Virus record (IMG/VR): IMGVR_UViG_3300034128_000023
Span: 147 to 64,146 of that record
Length of the DNA: 64,000 nt
From: a virus
Taxonomy: Duplodnaviria; Caudoviricetes
Direction: 5' to 3' (one strand)
The notes beneath the pieces are model-generated. The model saw only the letters and a program-made list of their open reading frames with translations. It was not told the DNA's origin and did no database searches. The position numbers and the translations under genes are program-made. Of the stretch, positions 26,949-55,600 are shown piece by piece. Position 1 is the stretch's first letter. Each line of letters begins with the position of its first letter.

Positions 26949-27323
26949 TCAGGTGCTCTTTGACCCGTCAATAACATTCTGGACCGCCATCAGGAGCCCG
27001 CACCAGGCCTCGTGCCATTTATCGGTCGCGGCTTGCAGCCGGTCGACGTCGGAAGAGAGCCAGTCCGGCGATGCCCCCGCCTCGGCGAGCCGCGTGTCAA
27101 TTAAAAAGGTCACAAACGGCAGGTCCACACTCCTGTTCACCTGAGCGTTGTTATCCTTCCAAACGCGCTCAATTACGGCAAGAGCCGCATTGCGGTACTG
27201 ATACGCAGGCGGCCCCGCCTCATCGACGAAAGCGCTGTCCGCCCCGAATTTGGCCCGGTACGATTCGGCACCGCCGATGTCACCCAAAGCGTCGAGAATA
27301 TCGTTCTCTTCTTGCTGCGTCAC
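26949..27323 (-). CDS. hypothetical protein
   Basis: GTG start overlapping upstream TGA. Confidence 0.6.
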   Translation of the reverse strand: MTQQEENDILDALGDIGGAESYRAKFGADSAFVDEAGPPAYQYRNAALAVIERVWKDNNAQVNRSVDLPFVTFLIDTRLAEAGASPDWLSSDVDRLQAATDKWHEAWCGLLMAVQNVIDGSKST

Positions 27324-27715
27324 GGGGTCCCCTTGGGGTGGCACTTGCCACAGCAGGTCTTTGGGGTCGTCACTGCCGGGGCGTACTCCAGCAGCCCGGC
27401 CCAGTACGCCAAACGGTAGTTCTCCTTGGTGTGGGGGATTTTGTCGGCCCGCCAGTCCGCGAGCCACTCGTCGACACCGACGGCCGTCTCACGGGTGAAT
27501 TCGCGAGAGTCCTGCACCGGCTCGGCCTTGCTGTCGAGGATTTCCTGGCGCAGCTTGCTGATGGTGCCGAGCAGCTCCGTGACCATGTCCTGTGTCCCTT
27601 CCAAGGCCTCGGCCGTGGCCAGCGCACGGAGACGGGACAGCGCGGTCGCTGACGGCATGAGCTTGAGTTCAGTGGTGCTGTACGGCTTGATTCGCGGCGG
27701 AGCATGGTCGGTCAT
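27320..27715 (-). CDS. hypothetical protein
   Basis: TTGACA-N18-TATTGT-N6-ATG upstream. Confidence 0.65.
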   Translation of the reverse strand: MTDHAPPRIKPYSTTELKLMPSATALSRLRALATAEALEGTQDMVTELLGTISKLRQEILDSKAEPVQDSREFTRETAVGVDEWLADWRADKIPHTKENYRLAYWAGLLEYAPAVTTPKTCCGKCHPKGTP

Positions 27716-27802
27716 AAAGGCACAATACATCGCCGGGGCTGCAGATGTCAAGCGCCCGCTGGGGCTTGACGGTTCCGATTTAGGTGTGGTACTATCCTTG
27801 GC
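27716..27802. promoter_or_regulatory. divergent pair of leaderless early promoters
   Basis: minus: TTGACA 27751-27746, TATTGT; plus: TTGACG 27766, TACTAT 27790, N7, ATG. Confidence 0.75.
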
Positions 27803-28195
27803 ATGCGAATCAAAGTACTTAGCTTCGACGCGGTGCCAGATTCCTCTGGGGACATCTTTGACCCCGAGGGGTGTTCTTTTGCTCCCGAAGTCCCCGTGTA
27901 TTTTGGCTTTAACGAGAACGGAGACCCGAGCAAGATGGCCGGAATAGCCCGTCTCGAAAAAACCGCAGACGGCCTGTACGCCACATTCGACCTCGTTGGG
28001 GATGAGGGGCTTGGTGGGTACCTGACCCCCTACGTCTGTGGTTCCTGTCTCGCCACAGAGACCACCCCGCTCGACGGAAAGACCGTCATCACCGAGTGCA
28101 GAATTAATACAATCAGCCTGGGCACCCTGCCAAACCGGGACAGCCGAATTCTCTCTATCGGCTGCCAGCTCGCGGAGCAAGTCTATGGGAAGTGA
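27803..28195 (+). CDS. HK97 prohead-protease-like protein, apparently inactive
   Basis: DSSGDIF, VPVYF, DGLYATFDL, INTISLGTLP echo the family pattern; catalytic His/Ser positions not conserved. Confidence 0.5.
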   Translation: MRIKVLSFDAVPDSSGDIFDPEGCSFAPEVPVYFGFNENGDPSKMAGIARLEKTADGLYATFDLVGDEGLGGYLTPYVCGSCLATETTPLDGKTVITECRINTISLGTLPNRDSRILSIGCQLAEQVYGK

Positions 28196-28658
28196 AATCG
28201 AGCGCAAGTTCCTGGTGTGGGAGGACCTCGTCGAGCGCGTGACCCAGAACGGGGACGTCGACTGCTCCTATATCGTCCAAGGGTACCTGGTCTCAGAAAA
28301 AGGCCACCAGGTCCGGGTGCGCCGCAAGGGCGACAACGGGTACCTCACCATCAAGGGGGCCCGCAAGGGGGCGACTCGCCAAGAGTTCGAGTACGAAATC
28401 CCGCTCGAGGACGCCACGGCGATGCTGAAGCTCTGTTCGGGGCTCATCGAGAAGTACCGCTACGCTGTCCTTGTCGGCGGGCGCACCTGGGAGGTGGACG
28501 TCTTCGGTGGGGACAATCTGGGTCTTGTCTTGGCCGAGGTCGAGCTGCAGAACGAGCATGACCGGCTCGTTCTTCCCGACTGGGTCCACGCCGAAGTGAC
28601 CAACGACAAGCGCTATTACAACGAATACTTGGTCAAACTCCCTTACCGAAACTGGTGA
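28185..28658 (+). CDS. CYTH domain protein (triphosphatase/adenylate cyclase-like)
   Basis: EIERKFLV, QGYL, RVR, LTIKG, EFEYEI, EKYRY, WEVDVF, LAEVEL. Confidence 0.92.
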   Translation: MGSEIERKFLVWEDLVERVTQNGDVDCSYIVQGYLVSEKGHQVRVRRKGDNGYLTIKGARKGATRQEFEYEIPLEDATAMLKLCSGLIEKYRYAVLVGGRTWEVDVFGGDNLGLVLAEVELQNEHDRLVLPDWVHAEVTNDKRYYNEYLVKLPYRNW

Positions 28659-28661
28659 CCT

Positions 28662-29408
28662 ATGTTTTTTCTTCCTGGTGATAAAGTCCAAGTTGTACCT
28701 GGCGGCCTCTTCGGCCCAGGCCTGCCGTCGGATGGTATAGTGACGTCCGCAGTGGGAACGACCCCGTTGGGGTCCACCATCTACCGGGTAGGTTTCGGCC
28801 CCACGGTCGCCCCCACCGACGTCGGCGAGAACTACCTCGTGCTGGTCTTGGCGGAGGCGTACGGTGCCGCTGCTCCGGCCCCTGTCCGTACTGTCCGGCC
28901 CCTGCCTCTCGACGACCCCTACTGGCACGGGCACAATATGGCCGGGTACATCGTGCAGTGCGTGTGCGCCACCCCCTTTCACGTCCCCCACCAGTTTTAC
29001 CGGCTTACTGGCGTATTTTCGGCGTCTCCGGCCCAAAACGACTGCGAAGTCGAGGACGCGAGCCGTGCGCTCTCTGTCGGTGACTCCAAATTCTTTCGGT
29101 GCTGGGGACCACCCACCCCCTTCCCGGGAGCGGTTGTTCCGCCCGACATGGCCGCACTAATCCAAGCCCTGCAGACGCCTCAGCTCGCGCCTCCCCCGCT
29201 GGTCCAGGTCCCGGCAGCACAGGCCGCCGCCATAAAGCAGCAATTCAACGCCTCCATCGGGGGCGTGGGCCCCTTATGGCGCATGCCGATAGTGCCGGAC
29301 GAGACCTTCGTGAACGTCTACATTGCGCCCCCGGCCGCCCCCAAGTGCACGTGTGGTGCCGCCAAGTGCAACTCTCAAATCCACTCGAGCTGGTGCGACT
29401 TGGCTTGA
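28662..29408 (+). CDS. hypothetical protein (KOW-like N-terminus, Cys/His C-terminus)
   Basis: FLPGDKVQV; CTCGAAKC...HSSWC. Confidence 0.7.
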   Translation: MFFLPGDKVQVVPGGLFGPGLPSDGIVTSAVGTTPLGSTIYRVGFGPTVAPTDVGENYLVLVLAEAYGAAAPAPVRTVRPLPLDDPYWHGHNMAGYIVQCVCATPFHVPHQFYRLTGVFSASPAQNDCEVEDASRALSVGDSKFFRCWGPPTPFPGAVVPPDMAALIQALQTPQLAPPPLVQVPAAQAAAIKQQFNASIGGVGPLWRMPIVPDETFVNVYIAPPAAPKCTCGAAKCNSQIHSSWCDLA

Positions 29409-29441
29409 CAGTCCCCGTTCCGCAGATGTAGAGTGCGCGCC
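29405..29441 (+). promoter_or_regulatory. early promoter of rtcB, leaderless
   Basis: TTGACA-N18-TAGAGT-N7-ATG. Confidence 0.75.
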
Positions 29442-30641
29442 ATGAACTTCCAAGTGATGCACGGCAAGTCGGGTCTCGTCAAGCACTGGACCGCAGGCGT
29501 CGAGTTCGAGGAGGAGGCCCAGAAGCAGGTCCTCAATGTGGCCGACCTCCCCTTCATCTTCAAGCATGTGGCCGTCATGCCCGACACCCACGCTGGGCTT
29601 GGTGCGACCATCGGCTCGGTCATCCCCACCATGGGGGCCGTTATCCCCGCAGCCTGTGGAGTCGACATCGGTTGTGGAATTAGTTGCGTCAAGCTTGATG
29701 GGGTCGCCACCAAGGACCTCGTCAAGAACGCAGGTTACCTGCGAGAGAAAATCGAGCACGTGGTTCCCCACGGCCGCACCGCCAACGGTGGGGTAGGCGA
29801 TGTGGGCGCCCACAAGGCCATCCCCGAAGCTGTCGAAAACTGCTGGAAGAGCGAGCTGGTCGAGGGGTACAACGACATGGTGTACGTCGACCCCGAACTC
29901 GCCCACAAGGGCGTGCTGAGCCAGCTCGGCACCCTCGGCACCGGCAACCATTTCTTCGAGTTGTCCACAGACGAGAATGACGGCGTGTGGGCCATTGTCC
30001 ACAGCGGCTCGCGGGGCATCGGGAACAAGATTGGACAGACCTTCATCAACAAGGCTAAGGCCGCCATGCAGACCTGGCACATCACGCTGGCAGACCCCAA
30101 CCTGGCCTACCTCCCCACGGGCACTCTCGACTTCGCGGCGTACATGCGGGCCGTCGAGTGGGCTCAGAGGTACGCTCGGCTCAGCCGTGAGCTGATGATG
30201 CGGGCCGCGGTCCAGGCCCTCGGTCTGAGGGGCTCGGGGCACATCGACTGCCATCACAATTTCGTGGCGTGGGAGCAGCATTTCGGCAAGTCCATTTTGG
30301 TGACCCGCAAGGGGGCCGTTCGTGCCCGCGTGGGCGACAAGGGCATCATTCCGGGGTCGATGGGGGCGCGCTCCTACATCGTGGAGGGCCTCGGCAACCC
30401 AGAGTCCTTCATGTCCTGCTCTCACGGCGCAGGCCGCCGCATGTCCCGCACCGAAGCGAAGCGGACCTTCTCGCTCGAGGACCACGCCAAGGCAACCGCG
30501 GGTGTGGATTGCCGCCAGGACGCCGACGTACTCGACGAAACTCCGGGCGCTTACAAGAGCATCGATTCCGTCATGGCGGCCCAGGCCGACCTCGTCAAAA
30601 TCAAGCATACCTTGAAGGCCTTTTTGTGCATCAAGGGTTGA
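29442..30641 (+). CDS. rtcB: RNA 3'-phosphate ligase RtcB
   Basis: MPDTHAG, GVDIGCG, GTGNHF, HSGSRG, CHHN, RKGA, PGSMG, SHGAGR. Confidence 0.95.
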   Translation: MNFQVMHGKSGLVKHWTAGVEFEEEAQKQVLNVADLPFIFKHVAVMPDTHAGLGATIGSVIPTMGAVIPAACGVDIGCGISCVKLDGVATKDLVKNAGYLREKIEHVVPHGRTANGGVGDVGAHKAIPEAVENCWKSELVEGYNDMVYVDPELAHKGVLSQLGTLGTGNHFFELSTDENDGVWAIVHSGSRGIGNKIGQTFINKAKAAMQTWHITLADPNLAYLPTGTLDFAAYMRAVEWAQRYARLSRELMMRAAVQALGLRGSGHIDCHHNFVAWEQHFGKSILVTRKGAVRARVGDKGIIPGSMGARSYIVEGLGNPESFMSCSHGAGRRMSRTEAKRTFSLEDHAKATAGVDCRQDADVLDETPGAYKSIDSVMAAQADLVKIKHTLKAFLCIKG

Positions 30642-30659: not shown

Positions 30660-31679
30660 ATGGTGGGTAACTCGCACGATTTTCTCGTCAGCATCCTAGG
30701 CTCAGCCGGCGCAGAAGCCTTGCGGCGCGCAGCCCAGCGCCAACCGTCGTTGGGGTCGTTGCTTGTCCCGCGGGCGGCCCTGGCCTGGGTCCAGACACAA
30801 AAGAGCTTCGACGGTGTCGTTCCAGGTAACCCAGGACGTCTGGCGTTCGCGAAATCCGAGTCGGGCCTGACCGGCCAGGTGCTGGTCGGAGACAACCTCT
30901 ACGAGTTCGCGAACGCCACTCCCGAGCACGTAGCTGCAGCCCTTTCGGTCTCGGTCGGCGCCGGTGAGACCACCGACCAAATCTCACGCCAAGTCCTTGT
31001 GAGGCTCGGCAAGTCAATCGACACCTTGGTGCAGGCCCAAACGGCCCGTCTCGCCAAGAGAACTCTCGACCCCGCTCTCGGGTACCGCCTCTCAGAAGAG
31101 CACCTCCCCGACGGCATCAGGATTCACGCCCACGACAAGCAGGGCGGCCATGTGGGGACCGCATGGTTCCAGAACGACGGCAGCGGCCTGAAGCCCGTCA
31201 CCATCGCCGTGGATGAAGACCACCAGCGTCGAGGCATCGCCGGTGCCATGTACGAGCACGCCAAGAAGCTCACCAATAAGCCCATCACGGCCCCCGACCT
31301 TCTGACGGATGAGGGCGCAGCTTTCCACGCCACCATCAAGACAGAGCTTCCAGGAATGACCGCGAAGCCCAGGGCTCAGCAGGGCCCGGAAGCCGCTGAA
31401 CCCCCGAAGATGCAGCCCCGAATGGCGCGACCCAAGCTTCCCAAGCCCCCGAAGCTCCCGGCACTGAAGGTGGAGAAGTCCGAAATGGCGCGCCTGTGCC
31501 CGATGTGCGGCCGGGGTCATTTTGAGGGCCAGCGCTACCGCGGATGCCTGTGCACGCGAGACCTGGCCAAATCTATTCGTACCCAGATTTTTAATGATGG
31601 CGTAGTGTTGGAGTTCGGTGGCGACTCGACTCGCGACGTGTTCCACCTAATCAGGAAGGCGCTCAAAAATGGCACCTAA
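30660..31679 (+). CDS. putative head protein with GNAT domain and C-terminal Cys cluster
   Basis: IAVDEDHQRRGIAGAMY acetyl-CoA motif; FAKSE/VEKSE/LAKS motifs; CPMC...CLC. Confidence 0.7.
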   Translation: MVGNSHDFLVSILGSAGAEALRRAAQRQPSLGSLLVPRAALAWVQTQKSFDGVVPGNPGRLAFAKSESGLTGQVLVGDNLYEFANATPEHVAAALSVSVGAGETTDQISRQVLVRLGKSIDTLVQAQTARLAKRTLDPALGYRLSEEHLPDGIRIHAHDKQGGHVGTAWFQNDGSGLKPVTIAVDEDHQRRGIAGAMYEHAKKLTNKPITAPDLLTDEGAAFHATIKTELPGMTAKPRAQQGPEAAEPPKMQPRMARPKLPKPPKLPALKVEKSEMARLCPMCGRGHFEGQRYRGCLCTRDLAKSIRTQIFNDGVVLEFGGDSTRDVFHLIRKALKNGT

Positions 31680-40566: not shown

Positions 40567-40752
40567 TCACTTGGTCTCCTTGACCACATCTTCTACCACT
40601 GTGTCTTCCGCGAAGCAACCGTGCTTGATGGCTTTTTCTGTTGCGGGGTTCTTCAGGTGCAGCAGGCCGCACCGCCAGCAAAACCGGAGCCACGGCTGGC
40701 GCTTCGGAGTGAACCAGCGGTGAGGCACCCGTTCTGAAACGCCCCGTTTCAT
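40567..40752 (-). CDS. small Cys/His protein
   Basis: PHRW...FCWRCGLL...C. Confidence 0.6.
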   Translation of the reverse strand: MKRGVSERVPHRWFTPKRQPWLRFCWRCGLLHLKNPATEKAIKHGCFAEDTVVEDVVKETK

Positions 40753-41393
40753 TCCAGCGTTACCGCCGGCCGGCAGCGGGGCTCAGACTTCCACTTCCGA
40801 TACAGGTCTGCGGTCCGCACGAAGCCCGCCATAAGCGTATCGGGGCCGAACCCGCCGGACAGCCACAGGTTGAAGTCCACGTAGATTTCCGACACAGCGT
40901 CCGAGTAGGTGTCGGGGACAATCTCGACTCGGACCTCATCGAGGTCGTTGGGGGCGTCGTTGACGGCGCAAAGAAGCCGGTCGTCGGTCCCCAGCTTCCG
41001 GGTCTGGAAGCACCACAACGTGATAAAGTGCCACATCACGGGCGCCAGATGGCAGGCTCCCGCCGTCGGGTCGGGCGGCTCCCCCTCCGGGGCCGGCGGT
41101 ACCAGGTCCTGACCAGAAGCGAACAGGAACAGGTGGCGAAGAAGGGCGTCCGCGCTCAGGCTCCAACTGTAGCCGCGTATGAAATTCCCGCGAGCATATT
41201 TTTTGGCACCAAGACCGTAATGCTTCGAGAGGGCCCACAGGGCCTCGACGGGCACCCGCTCAAAACCGCCCACTTCGGCCAGGAGCTGACTCATGAAGTC
41301 TGCGGGAATCAGACTCGGCTGGATGTCCTTGGAGCACTTTTCTCCCCCAGTTTTGGGGTCGACCTTTCGGACCTCGTGTGGGGTGTCACTCAT
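40749..41393 (-). CDS. dATP/dGTP diphosphohydrolase-domain protein (DUF5664-like)
   Basis: TGGEK, GAKKYARGNF.RGYSWS...DALLRHL. Confidence 0.75.
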   Translation of the reverse strand: MSDTPHEVRKVDPKTGGEKCSKDIQPSLIPADFMSQLLAEVGGFERVPVEALWALSKHYGLGAKKYARGNFIRGYSWSLSADALLRHLFLFASGQDLVPPAPEGEPPDPTAGACHLAPVMWHFITLWCFQTRKLGTDDRLLCAVNDAPNDLDEVRVEIVPDTYSDAVSEIYVDFNLWLSGGFGPDTLMAGFVRTADLYRKWKSEPRCRPAVTLE

Positions 41394-41580
41394 CTGCCGA
41401 CTCCTCGAGGTCAAAAATGCGGTCGTACACCATCATCGCGGCCTCGAAAGAGGGCACGGCTCCCACGCACAGGGCTGCCTCCCGACAAGCGATGTTCCAC
41501 CGAATGACGAAGCGTCGGTGGGCCTCCTGTGCCTTGGCGTAGTCCTCTGCGTTTACCATGTCCTTGTCCTTCTTGTCCAT
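41386..41580 (-). CDS. hypothetical protein
   Basis: MDKKDKD...; SD GGAGG. Confidence 0.55.
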   Translation of the reverse strand: MDKKDKDMVNAEDYAKAQEAHRRFVIRWNIACREAALCVGAVPSFEAAMMVYDRIFDLEESADE

Positions 41581-41581: not shown

Positions 41582-42478
41582 TTATGCCTCCGAATCCATC
41601 TTCCTGAACAGCTTGCCTGCTGCGGACCGAATCGCCTTGCGGGTGACCGGGGCGTCCTCGAACTCGCCTGCACCCTCTCGGACGACGTCCTCTACCATAG
41701 CATCCAGGAAAGCTGGAGTGTCGCTCATGGTGAGGGTCCTGCCCAGCGTCCCCTTCAGCTTGTCGGCCACATGTCGACCGCGCTCCTCGGTCACGAACTC
41801 GGCCGCAACCGCCTCGGCGCTGGTGAGAGCCGCTGCGACCGCTGGGTCAAGCTGGGTGTCCTTCTTGGAGGCGCGCTCCGAGAAGTCGTCCCTCTTGTGC
41901 TTGGCGATGATGCGGTCACCGCCCGGGTAGACCAGCTCTACGACGGGGCGAATGACAATGCCCTCCGCCGGCCGGGGCACGTAGTCGACGACCCCATCCT
42001 TGAGGGCGTTCGCGACCCCCACCCGAGAGGGGATGTCCCGCTCCGCGTCCAGAGCCTCGCGGGTGCAGTCCACGAGGTTGAAGGGGACGAACTCGAGCCC
42101 CAGGTTCTCGACGAGCCGCTTCGCTTGCTCCGCCTGGAGCCACTTGCCCGAAATCATGACGTCGAAGGCAATGAAGCGCGCCTTGGTGCCGTACGTGGCC
42201 GACATCTTCTGCATCTTACCACCGTAGGCCTCGCCGTAGACGGTCACCTCGGATGGGGGCTCGTGGAAAATCTCCTTCATCTTGGCGAGCAGGACCTCCT
42301 CATCGAAGCACTTGACGAAGGTCTGGTGGTTCTCGCCGCCCGAAAAGTAGACGACCTTGCCTTCCTTGAACGTCAGGTGACTTGAGGTGCCGTGCAGCTT
42401 TTCGAGCGCGTAAACCCGCTTAAACAGGTCGAGAATCCGTCGGTCTTTGGACAAATTATTAATGTGTAAATATCCCAT
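41582..42478 (-). CDS. ATP-dependent RNA ligase, Rnl2 family
   Basis: EKLHGTS (motif I), YGEAYG, AFDV, EGIVIRP, IAKHK. Confidence 0.85.
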   Translation of the reverse strand: MGYLHINNLSKDRRILDLFKRVYALEKLHGTSSHLTFKEGKVVYFSGGENHQTFVKCFDEEVLLAKMKEIFHEPPSEVTVYGEAYGGKMQKMSATYGTKARFIAFDVMISGKWLQAEQAKRLVENLGLEFVPFNLVDCTREALDAERDIPSRVGVANALKDGVVDYVPRPAEGIVIRPVVELVYPGGDRIIAKHKRDDFSERASKKDTQLDPAVAAALTSAEAVAAEFVTEERGRHVADKLKGTLGRTLTMSDTPAFLDAMVEDVVREGAGEFEDAPVTRKAIRSAAGKLFRKMDSEA

Positions 42479-42480
42479 TA

Positions 42481-42780
42481 TTATCCCTCTTCGTTGAAGA
42501 TGCACGGCGGCGTCACACCGCGGTTCCACTTGGCCAGAAGGTCTCGGAGACCGGCCGCCTCAGACTCGGCCTTTACGGCCGCGCGTCGCACCGCTTCGTT
42601 GGCACGGTCAAGGGCCATCGACCAAAACTGGGTGAAGTTTTCGGGGGCAACGTAGCGGTCGGGGCCGTGGCCGCGAATCCGCAGATACCCTCGGCCGAAC
42701 TCGGACACGGAACAGTCCTCGTCGCGGAATGTCTCGATGCCGCCCACCTTCGCTGCTCGGTCGGTAATATAGTAGCTCAT
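42481..42780 (-). CDS. hypothetical protein
   Basis: TTGACG-N18-TATGGT-N7-ATG upstream. Confidence 0.7.
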   Translation of the reverse strand: MSYYITDRAAKVGGIETFRDEDCSVSEFGRGYLRIRGHGPDRYVAPENFTQFWSMALDRANEAVRRAAVKAESEAAGLRDLLAKWNRGVTPPCIFNEEG

Positions 42781-42843
42781 GGTCGGCACCATACCTGACC
42801 CGGACCCTTGCCGTCAAGGGCAAATTGGTGTAATCTTCTGGGC
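42781..42843. promoter_or_regulatory. back-to-back early (minus) and late (plus) promoters
   Basis: minus TTGACG/TATGGT; plus GTAATCT 42830-42836, N7, ATG 42844. Confidence 0.7.
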
Positions 42844-45429
42844 ATGCAAAATGTTTATCTGTCAGGCGGGGCCGACCAGCCACTTCGGGAAATCGAAGTC
42901 GCGAGCCAGGCAGATGATTTTGAGCGACTCCAGAGGTACTCCCAGGCCCTTGAAGGTGCCATGGATGGCTGGAAGTCTTGGGTGCTGGCGTGCGGCGGCA
43001 CCGTATTCGCCATGGGGCCAGAGTCCTTCCGGGCCCGCATTGGGGCCGACCGCCTTCAGGAACTCCCCCACCTCCGCACCCAGTTCGCTACCGCCGTCGG
43101 CGCCACGATTTCCATTGGGGTTGGAGCCAAGCTGTCGGAGGCCGACCGCGCACTCGAGGCAGCCAAGAAGGTCGGCGGTGACCAGATTCGGCTGTATGAT
43201 GGGTCGGTCGAAGAAGACCTCCGTCACGAAAACGACGAAGAGGGCCTGAGCAAGAACCAGGCCGCCTTCCATGACCCCCGCGATGGCAAGGTGTACCCCA
43301 CCGGGTCAATCCACGACCTCGAAGGTCTCCCCGAACACCTCCAGGACGATGCCGTCAACGGCGTTCTGCAGTCTGGCTTTGTCGACACCCAGGGCCAATT
43401 CTTCCAGCGCAAACCGCGCCTCCCTCACACGGACGTCCAGAAGGCCGAAGACCCCCTGAACACGCCAGCGGCCGGCGGCGGAATGACTGGCCCCTCACAG
43501 CCCAGCCCGGAAGCGCCCCAGGCTCCCCTCACTGAGGCGTCCGAGCACTCCGAGAACGAGGCTCTGGCCAACATGCTGCGCAGCGCCCCCAGTAGCGCCC
43601 CGATGGACGTTGGGCAGCTCCATGACTCCTTCGACATGGCAGCCTCAGCCCAGGGCCAGCAGGACGAGAAAGAGGCCCAGATGCAGGGCCAGCAGGCAGA
43701 CAGCCAGGCCCAGACCTCCGACATCAAGTCGCGGGTCGCCGCTATCCTCAAGGTCTTCAAGGCGCGCGCTCCCGAACTCGAGCAGCTCCAGGACCAAGAC
43801 CCCGAGCTGTACCAGACCATCGTAGGAATGCTCAAGGCCATGACCGACATGGCTCGCGAGGCCAGTCAGGCCCCCGTGCAGAAGTCGGAAATCCTCCTGA
43901 AGATGGAAAACTGGAACCAGATGGCCCTCGTGTCCCCTGAGGGTGTGCTCCACGACACCGAAGGTCAGTCGCACCCCGACTGGGCCCACGAGAATCGCCA
44001 TCTGGTGGGATTCGTGCCCACCCACGATAGTGACTACAAGCCCGCGGCGGAGAGCGACGGCCAGGCCACCCAGGACAGCGAAGGACGCATCGCCCTCGAC
44101 CACTTCCTCGACGCAGGATGGACGCGAATCAAGCCCAACATGGGGGTCCAGGTGTCGGGATTGCACTCGGGCAATATCCGTACCGTGCATAAAATCATCC
44201 GAGCCATGGCCAAGCAGAACCCTGGCCGGCCCCTTTCGGTCGACGACGGCAACGGCAGCGCCCACGTGACCGTCAGCGGCTCGGGGCGACCGGACCTGTC
44301 CGTCCTGAATAGCCGAATTCAGAAGTCGGAGCTTATCAAGGGTTACCCCAAGGACGAAGACGAGAACCGAGCCAACGAGGCAGCCCACCAAATCCTCCAG
44401 GATTCTCTTGAAGAGAAGGGCGGCCAGGTCGTCCACGGCGCTGGTCCCTTGCTCCCCACAGGGGGTCGCACCGGCAAGACAGGCAAGCCCCTGAAGGACT
44501 CCCCCGTCTCGAGGTCTAGGATTCGCGGCGCAGCTGCGGCGAACCGTGGCGAAAACGAGCCAATTTACGCGGAGATGGACCCCGCCGCCCCCTATTATGA
44601 CGCCGGAATGCCCGCGGTGACTTCGAAGCCGACGGGGTTCACAGGTGGGGGCACGTCGGTGTCTGCCGGCCTCGGGTTCTCCAACGCCACCCCCCAGCGC
44701 ATCGCCGAGGGGGCCGACAAGCGATGGTGGGAAGATGTGGACCGCGGGTCCTGGGACCAGGTCAGTGACTCCTTCAATCGGCAGCATCCGTTTCCGGGCC
44801 ACCTTGTCGCGTTCTACGGAGGCAAGGACAGGCATCCGGGAATTGCCGTAGCGGCTCGTGCTCAGCCCGGCCGTCTCCTCGGCCGCTACCCCATTCATCC
44901 CGACACAGGCCAGCTCGGCTCCCCCGTCTCAGCGAACGGACTGACAGAGGTCCGCGACCTGCCCCCGGAAACCAAAGCGGCACTCCAGGCCCACTTGACC
45001 CAGCATTGGCCCACCTTCTTCAAGAAGCCTGCGGTTCTCAAGGCGGACCTCATGCCCGGCGGAAAGGCCGACGACAAGACCGACGACGACTTCGACCCCG
45101 ACGACCTGGCAGAAGGTGCCCGCATCGAGGCCGAAGAGCACGGGCTCGACGAGGCTCGCGCCAAGGAAATCGCCCGGGACCACCTGACCGAAAACTCGCA
45201 ATATTACAAAACCGCCAAGGCTGCCCTGGTTCCGCGGAAGACGGGCGTCCATCAGGTCCACTATCCTGTTGGGTCCCAGAAGGATGCCGGAGCCCAGGGC
45301 ACCCGTGACGTGGGGAAGATTAAGGTGCAAAGCAGTGCTGACGGGAAAACCAAGTGGCGGTCGGTTAGGGCCGGTCTCGTGATGGACAAAGAGGGGAACC
45401 CCATCTCCTCACGAAACCCAGGAGGGTGA
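42844..45429 (+). CDS. putative head polyprotein: degenerate mCpol-like domain, several small domains, DUF5661-like domain
   Basis: N-terminal palm pattern (TISIGVG..L.EA..AL..AKK.GG..I..Y); K[SA][ED] linkers; E.EH....A.EIA.DHL.E...YY. Confidence 0.75.
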   Translation: MQNVYLSGGADQPLREIEVASQADDFERLQRYSQALEGAMDGWKSWVLACGGTVFAMGPESFRARIGADRLQELPHLRTQFATAVGATISIGVGAKLSEADRALEAAKKVGGDQIRLYDGSVEEDLRHENDEEGLSKNQAAFHDPRDGKVYPTGSIHDLEGLPEHLQDDAVNGVLQSGFVDTQGQFFQRKPRLPHTDVQKAEDPLNTPAAGGGMTGPSQPSPEAPQAPLTEASEHSENEALANMLRSAPSSAPMDVGQLHDSFDMAASAQGQQDEKEAQMQGQQADSQAQTSDIKSRVAAILKVFKARAPELEQLQDQDPELYQTIVGMLKAMTDMAREASQAPVQKSEILLKMENWNQMALVSPEGVLHDTEGQSHPDWAHENRHLVGFVPTHDSDYKPAAESDGQATQDSEGRIALDHFLDAGWTRIKPNMGVQVSGLHSGNIRTVHKIIRAMAKQNPGRPLSVDDGNGSAHVTVSGSGRPDLSVLNSRIQKSELIKGYPKDEDENRANEAAHQILQDSLEEKGGQVVHGAGPLLPTGGRTGKTGKPLKDSPVSRSRIRGAAAANRGENEPIYAEMDPAAPYYDAGMPAVTSKPTGFTGGGTSVSAGLGFSNATPQRIAEGADKRWWEDVDRGSWDQVSDSFNRQHPFPGHLVAFYGGKDRHPGIAVAARAQPGRLLGRYPIHPDTGQLGSPVSANGLTEVRDLPPETKAALQAHLTQHWPTFFKKPAVLKADLMPGGKADDKTDDDFDPDDLAEGARIEAEEHGLDEARAKEIARDHLTENSQYYKTAKAALVPRKTGVHQVHYPVGSQKDAGAQGTRDVGKIKVQSSADGKTKWRSVRAGLVMDKEGNPISSRNPGG

Positions 45430-48568: not shown

Positions 48569-51496
48569 ATGCCGGTACCTGAGCATCTCAAAAATCACCC
48601 CGTGTTTTCTGGGAAGGGCTCGTTCGGCATCATGTCGGCCGAAGACCCATACTTCCCGGCCGAGACCGCCTCCACCTCAGAGAACCTTGGCGCGCACCTG
48701 AAGGCTCTCGGCCTCCACCACGAGCCCGTCGTCGGGCAGTACGAGAACGCCCGTGAAAATTCATCTCTAATTCACAACCCGACCCGCGAACAGATGATGG
48801 ACCTCGGGCGCAGGTTCGGCCAGGAGTCGGTCGTCTTTTCGCAGAACGGCAACCATGAAATCCTGTACACCAACGGTCCCCACAAAGGCAAGTCCAGGGT
48901 TCAGCACCCCGAACTCCCCACCTCCGAGTTCCTGACCGAGCCTCCGCAGCACGGTGGCTACACGCAGTTGCCCGGCGGCGAGATGTTCCGCCTGAATTTT
49001 GACTGGGGCCGCCAGCCGGCCGTTGTTCGCGACACCCAGTCTCACCCCCACGATTATTCCTGGCACGACACCAACACGTACCACAGCAGGTTCGACAAAG
49101 GCTATTCTGGGAACTCGCTGAAGAAGAGTGAGCAGCCCCTGGACATGAAGCTGCTGACCCCGTTCGGAACGGTTGGCGGTCCCCAGTCCCCCACCGACTT
49201 CAGCCACCTGCTCGGCCACAAGCTGGCCGACACCGAGGAGCTGGCAGCCAAGTACGGCTACAAGACCTTTTTGCATAGTGGGCGCTACGGAGCCCCCGAC
49301 TTCGAGGCGCACAACTACAGCACTGGGTTCTTGCCTATTTCTGACCCCGGCGCAACCGACCACGCAACGGAATCTGGAGTGCGAGCGTACCGTACTCTTC
49401 ACGAGCTGGCCCACGCCCTGACGTACCCCGAAATCAACAAGCTCTACGGCGAGTCGAGACGTAGTGGTGCGATGGGTGAGCGAACCCCCCACGAGACGAT
49501 GCGCTCCGTGCACTGGGAAGACCTCGCATCGAAGCGCCAGCGTGCTCTTGCCAGCGAAATTGGCGTGGCCGTGTCGGACCCCGACTTCAACAAGGACCGC
49601 AACTCTGTGATGGCAGACGCTGTCCATCGCGCCGTCACCGGTCGGGAATCAACCCCGCTGTCCCAGCTCGGCTTCGTTCCCCACTCTCACGAAGTCCCCC
49701 TGTCTACCGCTCTCGACTCCGTTCGTGCAGCTGCCGAGGAGAGGGGAATCCCAGGCCTCCACGACCACGCCGCACCGAAGGTTTCGGTCGCTAAGTCTCT
49801 GGCCAAGTCGGACACAGTCAAGGCGGCCTTCCGCCACAAGAAGACGGGCGCGGTCGTGACAGCCGAACACTTCCACGACCCCTCCGTACTGCCGGAAGGT
49901 CACTCGAAGACCGACTACGACGAAGGCTTCGTCGAGCGCGGAGCGTTCCATACCCGCGACGAATACAAAAAGAAGTACCCCCGCAAGATGAAAATCAAGA
50001 AAGCGGAGCTGCCGGCCCCGGTAATCCACACCAGCGTCGAGGGCTTCCTGAAGGGCCTCCAGGCCATCCCGAAAGGAACGCCCGAACGAGGCAAGTTCAT
50101 CACTCGGCACATGGGGCACGCTGGCTTTATTGGTGCGCTCCGCGCCCACGCGCAGGGGCCGCAGATTTTTAAAATGCTGACCGCACATCTGAACAGCCCG
50201 GCCAATGCTGGTCCGGGTAGGGCGGTTGTGACAGCGAAATCAGAAGACGGCGTAATCTTGCTGGACGGGAGTAAACACGTGGCTACAGACCCTATTGCAG
50301 CGCTCGAGCGAATTCAGGTGTTGTCGGCGAAGCTCTATGAGCTGCACAAGAAGGAGCTGGAGAAGCAGCTCATTCCTCCCCACGACCACAACGTGGGCGT
50401 GACTGTCGGAGCAGGAATGGAAGACGTCGCTCCTGGCCGTCTCGACCACCGAGGTCAGATTGGCGGCACTGCCACCCGCAACCTTCCCCGCAAGCCGCAG
50501 GGCGTAGTTAAGGCGGCCCCGACCGAGACCTCCGCTGAGGCCTCCGCTGAGGCCTCCGCTGAAGAGTCCACCAAAGGTCGCGAAGAGTCGACGGTCGCCG
50601 CCCTCTGCAAGCTCTGCAAGAAGGGTCCGTGCGCGTGCGCCGCAAAGGGCGAGATGTCCGCAACCGGAGTTCTTCCGGGCGACAAGCCAGTCAAGGAAAG
50701 CTCTGTGGACGGGACCGGTGGCAAAATCAAGTCGGTCTCCGCCATCCGCAAGTCCGCGATGGAGAGCATGCAGAAGGCGGAGATTGCTCCGGGCGTGCAT
50801 TCCGACGCCGTGGCCAAGCCGACCCCCACCGTTTTTCCCGCGGCTCCCGCGAACGCGCCCCACTCGACCCGCCTGACGGAGGCGCTCAAGCTGGGCCAGC
50901 CTGTGCACGCGATGGCGCACCCCAACGGCATGCTCGAGTTCGTCCCCCCAGGGATGGTCCGCAACATCAGTGTCACCCAGAAGAGGCCGGTGTTTATGGT
51001 GCACCCAGCCCCCGTCGCGAAAGCTGAGCCCCCGATGGCAAAGCCGCCCGGCGGGAAGAACATGGCGACCCACACCCCGACTTCCAAGCCGGCCGCAGTA
51101 GCGCCCCCGAAGACGAAGATTCCGAAGCCCAAGGCCAAGATTGCAGTCGCCACGATGACCTCTGGCAACGTAGGCAATGCAGGAGCAGCGATGGGTACCG
51201 CCGCAGGTGGCGGTCTTGGCAAGGGCGTTATGTCCGACATCGCCCAGCGCGAGTCCCAGTCGATGGGCGGACCTACCGCAGTAGCCCCCGCCCCCAAAGC
51301 AGCCCTGCCGAGCCCGAGCCAGCAAGAGGACCGAGCCGCGATGTTCGCTGGCGCCATGGCTGGCGACTACACGCCCCCGGCCGCAGCTCCCAAGCCGAGG
51401 GTCGTAGCGGTAAATCCTGTTGGTGCAATCCCAGCAACAAAACTCACGAAGCGGCCTGGCATTTTTGGTCGTCTTCCTCTCAACAATCCCAAGTAA
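48569..51496 (+). CDS. putative head polyprotein with HExxH peptidase domain and Ala/Pro/Lys-rich tail
   Basis: GTAATCT-N7-ATG; LHELAH; many K[SA][ED] linkers. Confidence 0.8.
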   Translation: MPVPEHLKNHPVFSGKGSFGIMSAEDPYFPAETASTSENLGAHLKALGLHHEPVVGQYENARENSSLIHNPTREQMMDLGRRFGQESVVFSQNGNHEILYTNGPHKGKSRVQHPELPTSEFLTEPPQHGGYTQLPGGEMFRLNFDWGRQPAVVRDTQSHPHDYSWHDTNTYHSRFDKGYSGNSLKKSEQPLDMKLLTPFGTVGGPQSPTDFSHLLGHKLADTEELAAKYGYKTFLHSGRYGAPDFEAHNYSTGFLPISDPGATDHATESGVRAYRTLHELAHALTYPEINKLYGESRRSGAMGERTPHETMRSVHWEDLASKRQRALASEIGVAVSDPDFNKDRNSVMADAVHRAVTGRESTPLSQLGFVPHSHEVPLSTALDSVRAAAEERGIPGLHDHAAPKVSVAKSLAKSDTVKAAFRHKKTGAVVTAEHFHDPSVLPEGHSKTDYDEGFVERGAFHTRDEYKKKYPRKMKIKKAELPAPVIHTSVEGFLKGLQAIPKGTPERGKFITRHMGHAGFIGALRAHAQGPQIFKMLTAHLNSPANAGPGRAVVTAKSEDGVILLDGSKHVATDPIAALERIQVLSAKLYELHKKELEKQLIPPHDHNVGVTVGAGMEDVAPGRLDHRGQIGGTATRNLPRKPQGVVKAAPTETSAEASAEASAEESTKGREESTVAALCKLCKKGPCACAAKGEMSATGVLPGDKPVKESSVDGTGGKIKSVSAIRKSAMESMQKAEIAPGVHSDAVAKPTPTVFPAAPANAPHSTRLTEALKLGQPVHAMAHPNGMLEFVPPGMVRNISVTQKRPVFMVHPAPVAKAEPPMAKPPGGKNMATHTPTSKPAAVAPPKTKIPKPKAKIAVATMTSGNVGNAGAAMGTAAGGGLGKGVMSDIAQRESQSMGGPTAVAPAPKAALPSPSQQEDRAAMFAGAMAGDYTPPAAAPKPRVVAVNPVGAIPATKLTKRPGIFGRLPLNNPK

Positions 51497-51520: not shown

Positions 51521-54055
51521 ATGGCAAAGTCGATTTCGCTGGATTCAGGAACCCTGTACACCCCCGGGGGCTACGGGCAGTATAACGTCCAGAGCGCACA
51601 GTCCGGCCTCGCGACCACGGGTGTCTTGATGCTGGTCGGCGAAGCTGACAGCGGCCCCGACTTCACCCAGGAAGAGGACCTCGAGAAGAACGCCTTCGGT
51701 CCTGACCAGAAGGCCGAGGTCATGCTCAAGTACGGCTCGGGGGCTCTCGTAGATGCCTTCTGCGCCGCGGTTGTTGCCGCGAACGACCCAGACATCACCG
51801 GCAGTTTCTCGAGCTGCGTGCTGGTGAAGACCAACAAGAGCGAGCGCGCCACCGGAACCCTGCCCAAGATTGGCGGCGGGACCTATTCTGCCCTCGTGGC
51901 CAAGTCGGTTGGCGTCACCGGCAACGCGGTCTCGTTCCGCACCATCCAGGCCCAGGGCGAGACTCTCCCGACCACTGGCCCCTTCACCTTCATCTCGCCC
52001 GTCGGCAACCTCGACTACCGCATCCGTGCGAACGGCGGGGCCGCTGTCGGTGCCACGATTCCTGCCGGCTCCACGCCTGCCGGGTTTGTGAGTGCTGTCG
52101 ACGCACTGGTCGGCGTAGTTGCCACCGGTGGAGCGAACCGCAACCTTCTGACCTCCGCGGGTGGACGTTCCGTGGCTCTGACCGCCGCAGGCAACGTGGT
52201 CACCTTCGCAATCTCTGGCGGGGCCTGGGATAACATCCCGACCGTAGGCGACACCTTCCTGCTTCCTTTCGCGGCTCCTGCAGCTCTTCGTGGCGCTGGC
52301 GATGGGAACGTGGGCTCGTACGTGGTTGTCGCGGCCTCGTCGGCGAGCATTACCGCCACCAAGCTGAGCGACTACGACAGGGCCCTCGCGGTACCGGGCA
52401 CCATCACTCCTCCCGTGACCGTTCCTTTGACGGCGCTGGCTGTGACGGCCTCCACCGACCTTGTGGTGTACGGCTCGGTCACCGTGTCTGTCGATGCTGG
52501 CCCCGTGAATGACGGCGCAGGCAAGGCTCTCGAAATCGCCGAGCTGGTGAACGCCACCCCGGGTTCCGACCTTCTGTCTCGCACCGCATACGTCCTCGGA
52601 ACCACCACTCCGGTAACCTGGATGAGCAGGCCGCAGTCCGCCAAGCTCCTGACCTCGGCCACCGAGTACCAGGTGACTCTGAACGTCGCGAACTCCACGA
52701 CTCTCGCAACCGAGACCTTCACTGAGGGCGGCGAGATTGTCCTCAAGATGGGCTACGCTGGCGATACCGGCACCCTGACTGTCACAGACGACCTCCTCAC
52801 CACGACCGTCACTGGCGGCATTGGCGGGGACCTGACCCTCGACCTGAATACGTTCGGGTCCCTGCAGGCCCTGGCCGACTACATCAACTCGCGCCCCGGA
52901 TACACCTGCTCTGTGGGTACCGCAGCTCTTGGCCAGCTCCAGGCGTACGCTCTGGACGATGTCACCGTTGGCATCGCGGACCAGTGGGGCTCGCAGCCTG
53001 GCCGAGTGAAGGCGGACGGGTACCGATTCTTCAACGCAATCGACCAGGGCTCTGGCCTCGTGCAGCTTGGCGACCCCGCTTCGCCGAACGGCGCCGGGCT
53101 CCCCGACCTCATGGCGGGCGAAGAGTTCCTCGCTGGCGGCCTGCTGGGCGCAACGACCGACGCGGATGTCACTGCAGCGTACACCGCACTCGAAGAGGTC
53201 CGCGGGAACTTCCTGGTTCCTCTGTTCTCCCGTGACGCGAGTGCAGACGTCCTGGACGGCCTGACCGACACCTCGTCGACCTACACCATCACCGGAATCC
53301 ACACCGGTGCGAAGTCCCACGCCATTGCGATGTCGTCCATTAAGCGACGCCGCAACCGTCAGGCCTTCCTGAGCGTCGCGGACACTTTCGCAGCTTCGCA
53401 AGAGGTTGCGGCGAACATCGCGAGCTTCCGTAGCGCGATGGCGTTCGAGGACATTCGCGAGCCCAACGCCTTCGGCACCATCGAGCAGTTCCTGCCCTGG
53501 ATGGCGGCAGTGAAGGCAGCTTCGATGCAGGCTGCCGGGTTCTACAGAAACATCGAGTTCAAGGGCGTCAACATCGTGGGCTGTCTGCACCGCGACGGCA
53601 GCTTCCGACCCAAGAACGACACCCAGGTCGAGCAGGCCCTCAAGGCCGGACTCCTCATTCTCCGCCCCTCGCTTGATGGCGGGTATGTATTCGTGAGTGA
53701 CCAGACGACTTACGGTAAGGACTCGAACTTCGTCTTCAACTCCATCCAGGCCGTCTACGCTGCCGACACCATCACCTTGACGATGGCGATGCGGATGGAG
53801 AAGGCCATCGTCGGGCAGAGCGTCGCCGACATCAGCGCGCCAGCAGCCAAGGCCATCGCCGAAGGCGTCCTCGCTGACATGCTCAAGCTGAAGCTAATTG
53901 CGCCTTCGGACGATGGCGCCCCCAAGGGCTACAAGGACCTCTCCATCAAAATTGTCGGCAATGCACTGCTTGTTAATTGTGCCATCAAGCTTGCTACCGC
54001 AATCGACTTCGTAATTATTCAGTTCCAGGTCTCGCCGGTTCAGCAGTCGGCGTAA
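51521..54055 (+). CDS. contractile tail sheath protein
   Basis: TPGGY N-terminus, LVGEADSGP, GLLIL..., V.D.TTY, SIQAVYAAD, C-terminal IDFV.I. Confidence 0.9.
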   Translation: MAKSISLDSGTLYTPGGYGQYNVQSAQSGLATTGVLMLVGEADSGPDFTQEEDLEKNAFGPDQKAEVMLKYGSGALVDAFCAAVVAANDPDITGSFSSCVLVKTNKSERATGTLPKIGGGTYSALVAKSVGVTGNAVSFRTIQAQGETLPTTGPFTFISPVGNLDYRIRANGGAAVGATIPAGSTPAGFVSAVDALVGVVATGGANRNLLTSAGGRSVALTAAGNVVTFAISGGAWDNIPTVGDTFLLPFAAPAALRGAGDGNVGSYVVVAASSASITATKLSDYDRALAVPGTITPPVTVPLTALAVTASTDLVVYGSVTVSVDAGPVNDGAGKALEIAELVNATPGSDLLSRTAYVLGTTTPVTWMSRPQSAKLLTSATEYQVTLNVANSTTLATETFTEGGEIVLKMGYAGDTGTLTVTDDLLTTTVTGGIGGDLTLDLNTFGSLQALADYINSRPGYTCSVGTAALGQLQAYALDDVTVGIADQWGSQPGRVKADGYRFFNAIDQGSGLVQLGDPASPNGAGLPDLMAGEEFLAGGLLGATTDADVTAAYTALEEVRGNFLVPLFSRDASADVLDGLTDTSSTYTITGIHTGAKSHAIAMSSIKRRRNRQAFLSVADTFAASQEVAANIASFRSAMAFEDIREPNAFGTIEQFLPWMAAVKAASMQAAGFYRNIEFKGVNIVGCLHRDGSFRPKNDTQVEQALKAGLLILRPSLDGGYVFVSDQTTYGKDSNFVFNSIQAVYAADTITLTMAMRMEKAIVGQSVADISAPAAKAIAEGVLADMLKLKLIAPSDDGAPKGYKDLSIKIVGNALLVNCAIKLATAIDFVIIQFQVSPVQQSA

Positions 54056-55547
54056 TGGCTAGCTCCCAACGGATGGAGCCGCAATCCCAGATGCGGTCCC
54101 ATCCGTTGTCTTTCATAATGTCCCACTCTGTAGATTCCGGGGCTCCCCCGAACGTCGCAAGGGCTACGGACTTACGCCATCTAAAGCGATGCACGCGCTT
54201 TGCTGTGTTTTTTTCAAAATACCAGTACGACGGAGGGTTCTCGCGTGTCTGGGAAAACCCCAGCGCGCGATAAAGATTCCCGTTGGACCACCTGTTGTCG
54301 CTGTAGGAAACAAGAGACCGTGCCTCTGGGTGCAGCCTGCGCCACGCGGATATCAGCTTTCCTGCTCCTCCGGACACCGTAACCCCAGGCCGAACGCAGT
54401 ATCTCGCCAACTCCCAAACCCCCTCCTTGTTTTTGGACCCCCGACTGGCGTTTGGACGAGCAAAAATCGCCGCCGCAAGCGTGGCACCTTCTGAGTCCGC
54501 CAAGGAAAACACCTCACCTCCCACCGAGCCTTGCAGGTGGTATTGGGCCACAAAGTCTCTACCAGCCGAGACGGCGACGGTGAGTGTCCTAGCGCCAACG
54601 CGCCGATGCGTCACACCCAGGATTGCCCCCAAATACCCGAGTACGACCTCCTTGCGACATACCCATTCGTCCTCGAATATTGTGATGAGCCGGACGTTTC
54701 GTGCCCTAGCCTCTTGGAGCTTAAGCAAATGCTTGCGGCGCGCATCTGGGCCGTTCCAGACTTCACCATGCCACCACAGACCGCAGTATTCTATGCCGAC
54801 ACGCAGGGAGGGAATCCATAGGTCCATCTCCAGACCGTCAAGCTCGGTCCTGTCGTTCCGCGCGATGGCGATGCCCGGGATTAGGTCTTGAAGGGCCGCG
54901 CACAGCTCGCCCTCTGCGAAGCTCTTGACGCACCCGCACGAGCGGGTTCTATAAAAAAGCAGGTTGTTGATGGATGTACTAAAAACGGTGCCGCACCTGC
55001 ATTCGAAATTCCATACTCCGCGGGCAGTGGTGTCGAATACGAAACCCTCCCCTGCGGGAATATTAAGTGCCTTGATATTGTTCTGGGCACAAACTTCAAG
55101 TACGTTTTTCCAGGTGTGCGTCGCGCATCCGTTAGGCTTCCCCCGGCGAGCAAGTCCAGCTTTCTGTCGTAACTCTTTTATGTCGGCGACGTCACACAGG
55201 GGCTCTTTTCCGGCCCTGAACCTGGCGGCCGAAACCTCCCTCTCTACCCCATTCCTCACGTTCTTCGCCAAGATAAAATGGTGACCGTCCCGTATTCCTA
55301 CAGACCGCACCCACACGACATCGCCTATCTGCATCCCCTCTCCGACAAACGACGGTTTTTTCCTGGGATTGCGAGAAAGCTCGCACCGACGACAGAAATG
55401 GCCACCAAGCACATTGTAGACGTAAAAACGGGACCGATGTCCGCCGGGGCAGGTCGCGGAGATATAGTGCCCCTCTAGGCCCTGTACGGAATATCCAAGC
55501 CCCGATAGCACCTCCAGGGCCTCTTGGGTCTTGCGCGGACTAGCCAT
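54015..55547 (-). CDS. free-standing Hef-like endonuclease: Zn fingers, PD-(D/E)xK core, GNAT/Mom-like C-terminal domain
   Basis: ELDGLEMDLWIP...GIEYCGLWWH; ELARYC...GGAGKL...SYSDNRWSNGNLY..LGF; IWDCG. Confidence 0.8.
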   Translation of the reverse strand: MASPRKTQEALEVLSGLGYSVQGLEGHYISATCPGGHRSRFYVYNVLGGHFCRRCELSRNPRKKPSFVGEGMQIGDVVWVRSVGIRDGHHFILAKNVRNGVEREVSAARFRAGKEPLCDVADIKELRQKAGLARRGKPNGCATHTWKNVLEVCAQNNIKALNIPAGEGFVFDTTARGVWNFECRCGTVFSTSINNLLFYRTRSCGCVKSFAEGELCAALQDLIPGIAIARNDRTELDGLEMDLWIPSLRVGIEYCGLWWHGEVWNGPDARRKHLLKLQEARARNVRLITIFEDEWVCRKEVVLGYLGAILGVTHRRVGARTLTVAVSAGRDFVAQYHLQGSVGGEVFSLADSEGATLAAAIFARPNASRGSKNKEGVWELARYCVRPGVTVSGGAGKLISAWRRLHPEARSLVSYSDNRWSNGNLYRALGFSQTRENPPSYWYFEKNTAKRVHRFRWRKSVALATFGGAPESTEWDIMKDNGWDRIWDCGSIRWELAITPTAEPARPGTE

Positions 55548-55600
55548 GGTTCGATTGTACCACAAAGCAGGGTAATCTGACAGACCAAAGGAGATTTTTG
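55548..55600. promoter_or_regulatory. divergent early (minus) and late (plus) promoters
   Basis: minus TGGTACAAT-N6-ATG; plus GTAATCT 55572-55578 and AAGGAG SD. Confidence 0.7.

Follow-up and report, generated by a model that had tools for sequence, protein, structure and literature searches.

A phage-borne mCpol-family palm domain, probably inactive in its own lineage, heads a multi-module late protein of an uncultured Mx1-like myovirus

Work of 2025-2026 established the minimal CRISPR polymerase (mCpol) as an enzyme of the host that holds a suicide effector in check by steady nucleotide production; in the Panoptes defence system, disappearance of the mCpol product sets the effector off (PMC12657218, PMC12657230, PMC13577387). 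The Panoptes synthase OptS is a free bacterial enzyme of about 125 residues whose active sites are formed between protomers, and product formation by KpOptS is lost with either D6N or D57N alone (PMC12657218). mCpol systems have been called relatively rare (PMC12657218), and the contexts in which surveys place them, with S-2TMbeta, CARF-TM, SAVED-TM and HEPN partners, are all cellular, no phage-borne form being among them (PMC12657218; PMC13577387). Here we describe a domain of this family fused to the front of an 861-residue late protein of an uncultured Mx1-like myovirus, a relative of Myxococcus phage Mx1. The gene lies in a stretch of 64,000 nucleotides (the window; positions 147 to 64,146 of IMG/VR viral record IMGVR_UViG_3300034128_000023, a contig of 64,146 bp with an estimated completeness of 38%), and all coordinates refer to this window unless stated otherwise.

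The second group of systems to which the locus is close consists of the polyvalent phage proteins, which have been argued to be delivered from the capsid and whose hallmark is the swapping of modules (PMC5512222; Iyer, Burroughs, Anand, de Souza and Aravind, 2017). A delivered cyclase has already been proposed to interfere with host nucleotide signalling, an inactive effector domain is retained in a head protein in the case of the Mu MuF PBECR domain, and the survey includes rare GGDEF-bearing members and never mentions mCpol (PMC5512222). Like these proteins, the one described here joins unrelated modules in a single phage polypeptide encoded among late genes, and its homologues have ART-PolyVal, GNAT and ParB_N modules in common with them (PMC5512222). 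Unlike them, its family has a constant mCpol head and a constant tail ending in ...SSRNPGG, no MuF or portal fusion being detected by Pfam in the 861-residue protein or in 49 relatives, and its junctions are marked by a common lysine motif and not by an embedded peptidase. T4 Alt and the T4 internal proteins, as well as the inner-body proteins of phiKZ-type phages, are packaged in the capsid, cut by the prohead protease and ejected with the DNA. The present locus resembles them, as far as sequence alone can tell, in its apparent late expression, in a short site that recurs and is also found in proteins of scaffold and portal type, and in the ART cargo of its relatives, but T4 and phiKZ cut after Glu whereas the motif here has at its centre a Lys with Ser or Ala after it. 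The only return of a literature search on mCpol in combination with phage and capsid was an unrelated preprint.

Residues 1-125 of the window protein are a genuine mCpol-family palm domain, and the resemblance is far beyond chance. Against Pfam family PF18182 (gathering cut-off 26.4 bits), the domain alone scored 29.5 bits (E 1e-6), a six-frame search gave 28.8 bits, over the cut-off, and the whole protein 24.2 bits, just under it. A profile built from 41 homologues matched only the solved chains of KpOptS (9mnr/9pd0) and of mCpol 9nwn, with E 1.1e-9 and over residues 2-118 of the 125-residue OptS enzyme; phmmer with the single domain against the PDB returned nothing or almost nothing. The AlphaFold2 model of residues 1-139 has a mean predicted local distance difference test score (pLDDT) of 93.6, and OptS/mCpol structures fill the six best places among its Foldseek matches in the PDB (E 9e-9 to 1e-7, target template modelling score 0.81-0.84, root-mean-square deviation (rmsd) 2.0-2.3 Å), GGDEF and Cas10 palms ranking below them at E 1e-5 and weaker. 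VIA-align, run on the full-length model, superposed 118/119 residues on 9mnr_A (Z 17.4, rmsd 1.7 Å), in comparison with Z 12.5 for the best GGDEF and 12.0 for the best Cas10/Cmr2 structure; the matches of the whole model were filled by the mCpol domain, and its other parts were barely probed. A first-pass annotation of this DNA had proposed the mCpol relationship from peptides that are all found in the translation of 42844-43200, and the proposal is borne out by the concurrence of Pfam, family profile, Foldseek and VIA-align, the palm-fold match being led by mCpol/OptS ahead of GGDEF and Cas10. Identity to OptS amounts to 24%. The minimal palm fold of Panoptes OptS/mCpol (PF18182; PDB 9mnr, 9pd0, 9nwn; PMC12657218, PMC12657230, PMC13577387) is the same throughout and its base-contact Ser is kept; the phage family differs in its own W43/W46 helix and GGD strand.

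The catalytic centre is another matter, since the window domain, unlike OptS, has lost its catalytic Asp and its glycine loops. The first-pass annotation had read both metal-binding motifs as degenerate, which holds, but its register was one residue off: in the hidden Markov model (HMM) alignment to OptS, the second Asp is retained as D11 (OptS D8) and the hairpin D57 is conservatively replaced by E60, while the OptS base-contact residue S30 corresponds to S33 and K108 is retained. Asp occupies position 9 in 103 of 152 relatives and position 11 in 135 of them. The DGDxxGR loop reads GADQPLR here and the GG of the hairpin reads GP, where intact relatives have Gly at 97-100%. The substitutions Gly14 to Leu, Gly18 to Glu, Arg19 to Val, Asn40 to Met and Gly59 to Pro fall in columns that are 71-100% conserved in intact relatives, a figure that is 93-100% for each of Gly14, Gly18, Gly59 and Asn40. 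In this phage lineage, the domain thus probably neither makes nor canonically binds nucleotides. Degenerate GGDEF domains, such as those of PelD and PopA, are receptors of cyclic di-GMP by means of an RxxD I-site located five residues before the hairpin and offer a parallel, being likewise catalytically dead palm domains retained under selection. However, there is no RxxD ahead of the hairpin in the window, where GGTVFAM precedes GPES and TVFAM takes the place of the site, or in the family consensus (GGSxISxGGDE), and the receptor analogy was dropped for that reason.

The degeneration of the window copy takes its meaning from the family around it. An exhaustive HMMER search over 1.84 billion representatives (clusters at 50% identity) gave 650 clusters at E <= 1e-3 and 292 at E <= 1e-10, with members nearly all from uncultured Mx1-like phages and Mx1 as the sole cultured one; among the top 150, the start of the domain is nearly always found in the first few residues of proteins of 300-1500 residues. 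The family consensus contains WDGDHIGR and GGDEGR, and most phage relatives keep, as OptS does, the D-G-D and hairpin acidic residues: both states, active-looking and dead, are found among phage relatives, all three acidic positions being kept in 98 of 153 sequences and at least one lost, in many different ways, in the other 55. By sequence, most related phages carry what looks like a working cyclic-nucleotide synthase module. The pattern of the window (D9 lost, D11 and the acidic residue at 60 kept) recurs in 17 of the 153, and D11 also persists in members in which everything else is lost. In a related uncultured contig (L003), the orthologue is intact (TWDGDHIGR, GGDEG; 43.5 bits), and the Mx1 copy is more decayed (SWSID, LGAVG; 24.4 bits, below the Pfam cut-off). 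With an intact domain as query, tblastn matched only Mx1 among 50,697 phage records, and sequence patterns derived from the homologue alignment hit one viral locus and none in genome contigs.

In a tree built after removing the trait columns, the degenerate state requires 17 parsimony changes, at least 7 of them forced by well-supported branches. The window copy groups, with 99% support, in a set of 14 representatives that has no intact member; as the set spans only 40-59% identity to the window domain, the catalytic loss would be old and the retention of the domain long, and no deletion of the domain is seen in this clade. What the dead copies retain was read from column entropies in 98 intact and 49 degenerate domains. 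Relaxation in the degenerate members is limited to positions 9-19, 22, 36, 40, 58-61, 85 and 108, positions that take in the metal ligands, the two glycine loops, the beginning of helix 1 and the pocket Asn and Lys, while D24, Q34, W43, W46, G52, A68, L71, Y81, S90-G94, E99, A103, L104, A107, G111-D113 and Y118 are equally conserved in both groups. Since relaxation is confined to the active site, the whole substrate site appears to have been freed from selection together and the fold retained. This contradicts the earlier suggestion that the nucleotide-binding surface was kept: all active-site elements relax jointly in the 49 degenerate relatives, and the window itself carries G14L, G18E, R19V and N40M and has no I-site.

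As the first-pass annotation had it, the domain stands at the extreme N-terminus of a multi-module late protein, in which it is accompanied by a beta domain, a DUF5661 module, a C-terminal module and two further modules (Table 1). In the full-length model, residues 1-133 comprise the mCpol domain plus a C-terminal helix. The LSK linker that follows, pointed out in the same annotation, proves to be a degenerate form of a junction motif found at the same place in relatives, where it reads LQKAE (for example in homologue P0006) or LQKTQ; the strict motif, phi-x-K-[SA]-[ED], occurs within 60 residues after the domain in 65 of 146 relatives, with a peak at +27 to +31. The beta domain of about 50 residues (AAF...G.V...HD..LPE...GF) has a second copy in the 975-residue polyprotein encoded further downstream (about 49817-49966, pairwise E 2e-7) and is also present in homologue P0007. 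A disordered Pro/Gln-rich stretch comes next (residues 191-258), with VQKAE and a conserved EASEHS block, and, beyond the coiled coil, the cargo module of residues 346-494 carries a conserved SHPDWAH.NR.LVGF block and has no family match. HxT-like strings in this module (HDT, HVT) prompted a reading as an Acb1-like 2H phosphodiesterase, which was rejected because homologues P0027, P0157 and P0110 do not conserve the second His or either Thr. Residues 497-730 form a poorly modelled module. PF18905, matched weakly by the helical module near the C-terminus, is found in 10 of 49 relatives with a best E of 8e-9, and an Atlas search of the C-terminal part had only viral DUF5661 clusters as neighbours. 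An SSRNP-like ending occurs in 120 of 146 relatives; all matches of the C-terminal module also carry mCpol or are known family members, and the module is present in a single copy in the window.

The junction motif may tie this protein to the phage head. It occurs four times in the 861-residue protein versus 0.35 expected (0 of 300 shuffles reach four), five times in the 975-residue DUF3293 protein and twice in a GNAT-bearing protein of 339 residues, and the window's sheath, fibre and replication proteins have none. In 150 homologues outside the motif definition, 262 copies were counted against 50.8 expected. Mx1 has five copies in a gene of 290 residues that occupies the usual scaffold position, just ahead of the major capsid gene, two in its portal and four in a 1479-residue protein, where they flank GNAT and ART+NUDIX blocks. 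The motif-bearing genes are those at 30660-31679, 42844-45429 and 48569-51496 in the window and at L004:18798-19670, 8615-10675 and 24404-28843 in Mx1. In the full-length model, all five sites, the degenerate LSKNQ included, fall in pLDDT dips between confident blocks. Taken together, the motif is likely a site for the head protease. HK97-type proteases cut Lys-Ser, a cut that we take the junction motif, with its Lys followed by Ser or Ala, to resemble; the N-terminus of the annotated Mx1 protease is presumably of the general HK97 type, and Pfam gave no classification for it.

Between the constant ends, the middles of the homologues carry exchanged cargo: GNAT in 13 of 49, DUF5661 in 10, ART-PolyVal in two and ParB_N in one. 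The Mx1 gene annotated as “NUDIX hydrolase” (L004:24404-28843, 1479 residues) is a string of GNAT, ART-PolyVal and NUDIX blocks with junction motifs at the block borders, and the gene after it (L004:28851-30710) has a kinase region of the PI3/4 or HipA-like type. Module exchange is shown by homologue P0025, whose middle shares 44% identity with part of this NUDIX giant.

Several features of the gene and its surroundings point to late expression. The window contains 14 copies of the motif GTAATCT, every one on the plus strand, versus 2.1 expected (0 of 100 shuffles reach 14); its sites span 30643-62208 (for example 42830, 45887, 47531 and 51493) and nearly always lie 7-31 nucleotides upstream of the starts of virion-type genes (sheath, fibre-like, polyprotein). 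The late promoter that had been placed ahead of the gene is upheld in the form of this shared regulatory motif, a recurrent late-gene element that may act as a promoter; no enrichment of GTAATCT was seen in the related contig L003. Transcripts could be almost leaderless where the motif stands 7-10 nucleotides from the ATG. The listed open reading frame opens at a TTG 12 codons upstream of ATG 42844; as the Mx1 protein and about 150 homologues (MNIF..., MKVF...) start where the ATG lies, the gene start was set there. The sheath, neck-position and polyprotein genes show 34-49% identity and synteny with Mx1 (169.6 kb) and L003, and the source is an uncultured Mx1-like myovirus. The order mCpol protein, 275-residue protein, 337-residue protein, DUF3293 polyprotein and sheath is conserved in L003 and Mx1, and the position of the mCpol gene upstream of the sheath and near neck-position genes is thus common to the three phages. 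The Mx1 orthologue (WNM70340) has matching N-terminal, coiled-coil and C-terminal blocks; the mCpol domain and the C-terminus are the best conserved, and the middle is unrecognisable. Searches by megablast of the gene against phages, of PHROGs with the 861-residue protein, of NCBIfam with this protein and its neighbours, and of viral contigs for related loci with the window protein gave nothing or almost nothing.

From the homology, the fold, the residue losses and their pattern, the motif statistics and the synteny described above, we infer the following, with about an even chance of being right: a head-loaded, protease-cut polyvalent protein whose N-terminal mCpol pseudoenzyme is kept for a non-catalytic, family-wide role. 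The late multi-module protein of the Mx1-like myovirus would be loaded into the head and cut by the head protease at its lysine-containing linkers. In this lineage, the constant mCpol module would be a pseudoenzyme without catalytic Asp, glycine-rich triphosphate loop or GG hairpin, and the retained fold would serve a structural function common to the family, for example self-association or incorporation into the prohead. A shared non-catalytic role is suggested because the folded domain has long been retained despite its lost active site; packaging is suggested because the late-gene motif, the linker motif shared with the scaffold-position and portal proteins of Mx1 and the swapped GNAT/ART cargo all fit. 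A number of observations weigh on the other side. The strict motif is missing directly after the domain here (LSKNQ) and present there in only 45% of relatives, and the Mx1 major capsid protein and its protease are without it; the mCpol gene is closer to the sheath than to the capsid genes; the contig covers an estimated 38% of the genome; and a literature search for Mx1 virion proteins gave no paper. As to the domain itself, the residues conserved in both groups may be mere fold core rather than the mark of a specific second function, and the persistence of D11 and E60 makes residual or altered catalysis possible. Whether the protein is packaged at all is a separate axis from what its domain does: it could be a late cytoplasmic or a neck/tail assembly factor, with the lysine motif serving for binding or as a linker. 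The lack of a MuF or portal fusion by Pfam, the proximity to the sheath and the motif-free capsid protein and protease of Mx1 would suit such a factor, which we nonetheless consider unlikely, as the motif is concentrated in the scaffold-position and portal proteins of Mx1 and in giant proteins with enzyme modules and absent from sheath, fibre and replication proteins, and as the homologues bear modules, ART-PolyVal and GNAT, of the sort that characterises polyvalent proteins delivered from the capsid (PMC5512222).

Three other accounts of the domain compete with the structural pseudoenzyme. It could be a decaying relic, functionless and persisting as part of an otherwise needed protein; frequent and recurrent catalytic loss, at least seven times over, and an Mx1 copy that has slipped under the Pfam cut-off are what such decay would leave, but outside the active site the degenerate members are conserved like the intact ones, the all-degenerate clade has no deletion despite its 40-59% identity, and the domain and the C-terminus are the parts best conserved with Mx1 while the middle is unrecognisable, all of which makes a relic quite improbable. 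That the domain is still an enzyme, with D11 and E60, and perhaps another residue, holding the metal and a product possibly formed by altered chemistry, is a proposal we would meet with still more reserve. D11 is near-invariant (135 of 152), E60 is conservative for the hairpin Asp and the identical pattern recurs in 17 of 153 relatives; yet D6N alone abolishes KpOptS activity (PMC12657218), Gly14, Gly18, Gly59 and Asn40 are all replaced, and the survival of D11 where all else is lost suggests a structural role. Most improbable is the interpretation advanced in the first-pass annotation, a virion-delivered pseudo-cyclase that would either soak up cyclic nucleotides as a sponge or pair, with dominant-negative effect, with mCpol, Cas10 or GGDEF enzymes of the host. 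It would account for the kept fold, the long-term retention and the preservation of S33 (the base contact S30 of OptS) and K108, and mixed oligomers are conceivable for an enzyme with active sites between protomers (PMC12657218). However, the whole active-site set relaxes jointly, the loop reads GADQPLR, N40 is Met, there is no I-site before the hairpin, and an identity to OptS of 24% is poor for hetero-oligomerisation. Moreover, a sponge or poison subunit directed against host OptS would set off Panoptes instead of disarming it, to the harm of the phage, because the effector fires on loss of the product (PMC12657218, PMC12657230).

By the same logic, an active phage mCpol could keep Panoptes silent, since the effector fires on product loss. 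A speculation that we rather doubt, and that concerns the intact relatives, is that mCpol, as the constant head of a cargo protein delivered from the capsid, is injected or released and makes decoy cyclic nucleotides that silence Panoptes-type effectors or jam other nucleotide-sensing defences while nucleotide-degrading cargo of the phage acts, the dead copies then revealing a second role in assembling or targeting cargo into the head. PF18153 (Cap15_CD_rec) and PF18145 (SAVED) had no match in the window record (an estimated 38% of its genome), L003 or Mx1, in a search in which the control genomes were silent too and CARF was not included.

Some neighbouring genes deserve mention. Mx1 has a separate gene for a 243-residue GGDEF protein (L004:17173-17904) with an intact GGDEF motif (PF00990, 39 bits), with a giant prohead-protease gene on one side of it and the major capsid gene on the other; the matching head block lies outside the window. 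A DUF3293 domain opens the polyprotein just upstream of the sheath (48569-51496 in the window; L004:37603-39282 in Mx1), and in Mx1 this region has a further, weak match, to the S-adenosylmethionine lyase family (E 7.6e-5), and could be an anti-restriction module. The sheath gene is followed immediately, on the opposite strand, by a gene for a 516-residue HNH/homing-endonuclease-like protein (54015-55565 (-), phrog_3339 E 8e-67), and the late block is broken by small opposite-strand genes on either side of the mCpol gene. An RNA-repair and nucleotide set comprising an RtcB ligase, an RNA ligase, a metallophosphoesterase and a MazG-like pyrophosphohydrolase-type protein is found near the virion genes (29433-30641 (+), 41582-42529 (-), 17069-18025 (-) and 40749-41414 (-)).

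Table 1. Features of the mCpol-headed gene and its upstream motif, with window coordinates.
Feature	Position	Strand	Basis
GTAATCT late-gene, promoter-like motif	42830..42836	+	7 nt before ATG 42844
Whole gene, 861-residue multi-module late protein	42844..45429	+	Open reading frame and translation; orthologue of Mx1 WNM70340
mCpol palm domain, residues 1-125	42844..43218	+	Sequence, profile and fold matches to mCpol/OptS
G9-A10-D11 for family D-G-D (KpOptS D6-G7-D8); catalytic first Asp lost	42868..42876	+	HMM alignment, column counts
G58-P59-E60-S61 for family G-G-D-E hairpin (KpOptS D57 = E60)	43015..43026	+	HMM alignment
LSKNQ linker, residues 135-139 (K137), degenerate counterpart of phi-x-K-[SA]-[ED]	43246..43260	+	Local pLDDT minimum of 63, flanked by blocks at 90 and 96
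Beta-rich domain of about 50 residues, residues 139-190	43258..43413	+	pLDDT 89-96
VQKAE junction motif, putative head-protease site	43435..43449	+	Segment pLDDT <50
Long-helix/coiled-coil block, residues 259-340	43618..43863	+	pLDDT up to 94; conserved in Mx1 and family consensus
VQKSE junction motif, residues 345-349	43876..43890	+	Same motif in Mx1
Cargo module, residues 346-494	43879..44325	+	Common to P0027, P0157, P0110
IQKSE junction motif, residues 492-496	44317..44331	+	Motif scan, pLDDT profile
VLKAD junction motif, residues 731-735	45034..45048	+	KADLMPGG recurs in P0004, P0005
Helical DUF5661-like module, residues 741-794	45064..45225	+	PF18905 E 0.0034; pLDDT 89-97
Constant beta-rich C-terminal module ending ...SSRNPGG, residues 805-861	45256..45426	+	43% identical to Mx1

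In terms of what the locus means, the window copy is, on its residues, a pseudoenzyme, which lowers the immediate interest of this particular domain. The wider family is another matter: a large phage-borne mCpol family heads probable capsid cargo, with several independent dead lineages and most copies looking active. The natural series of active and dead members could separate catalysis from a possible structural role, and Mx1 is cultivable. Phages may thus carry the immune-type mCpol enzyme themselves, which leads to the testable idea that they make the guard's own signal.

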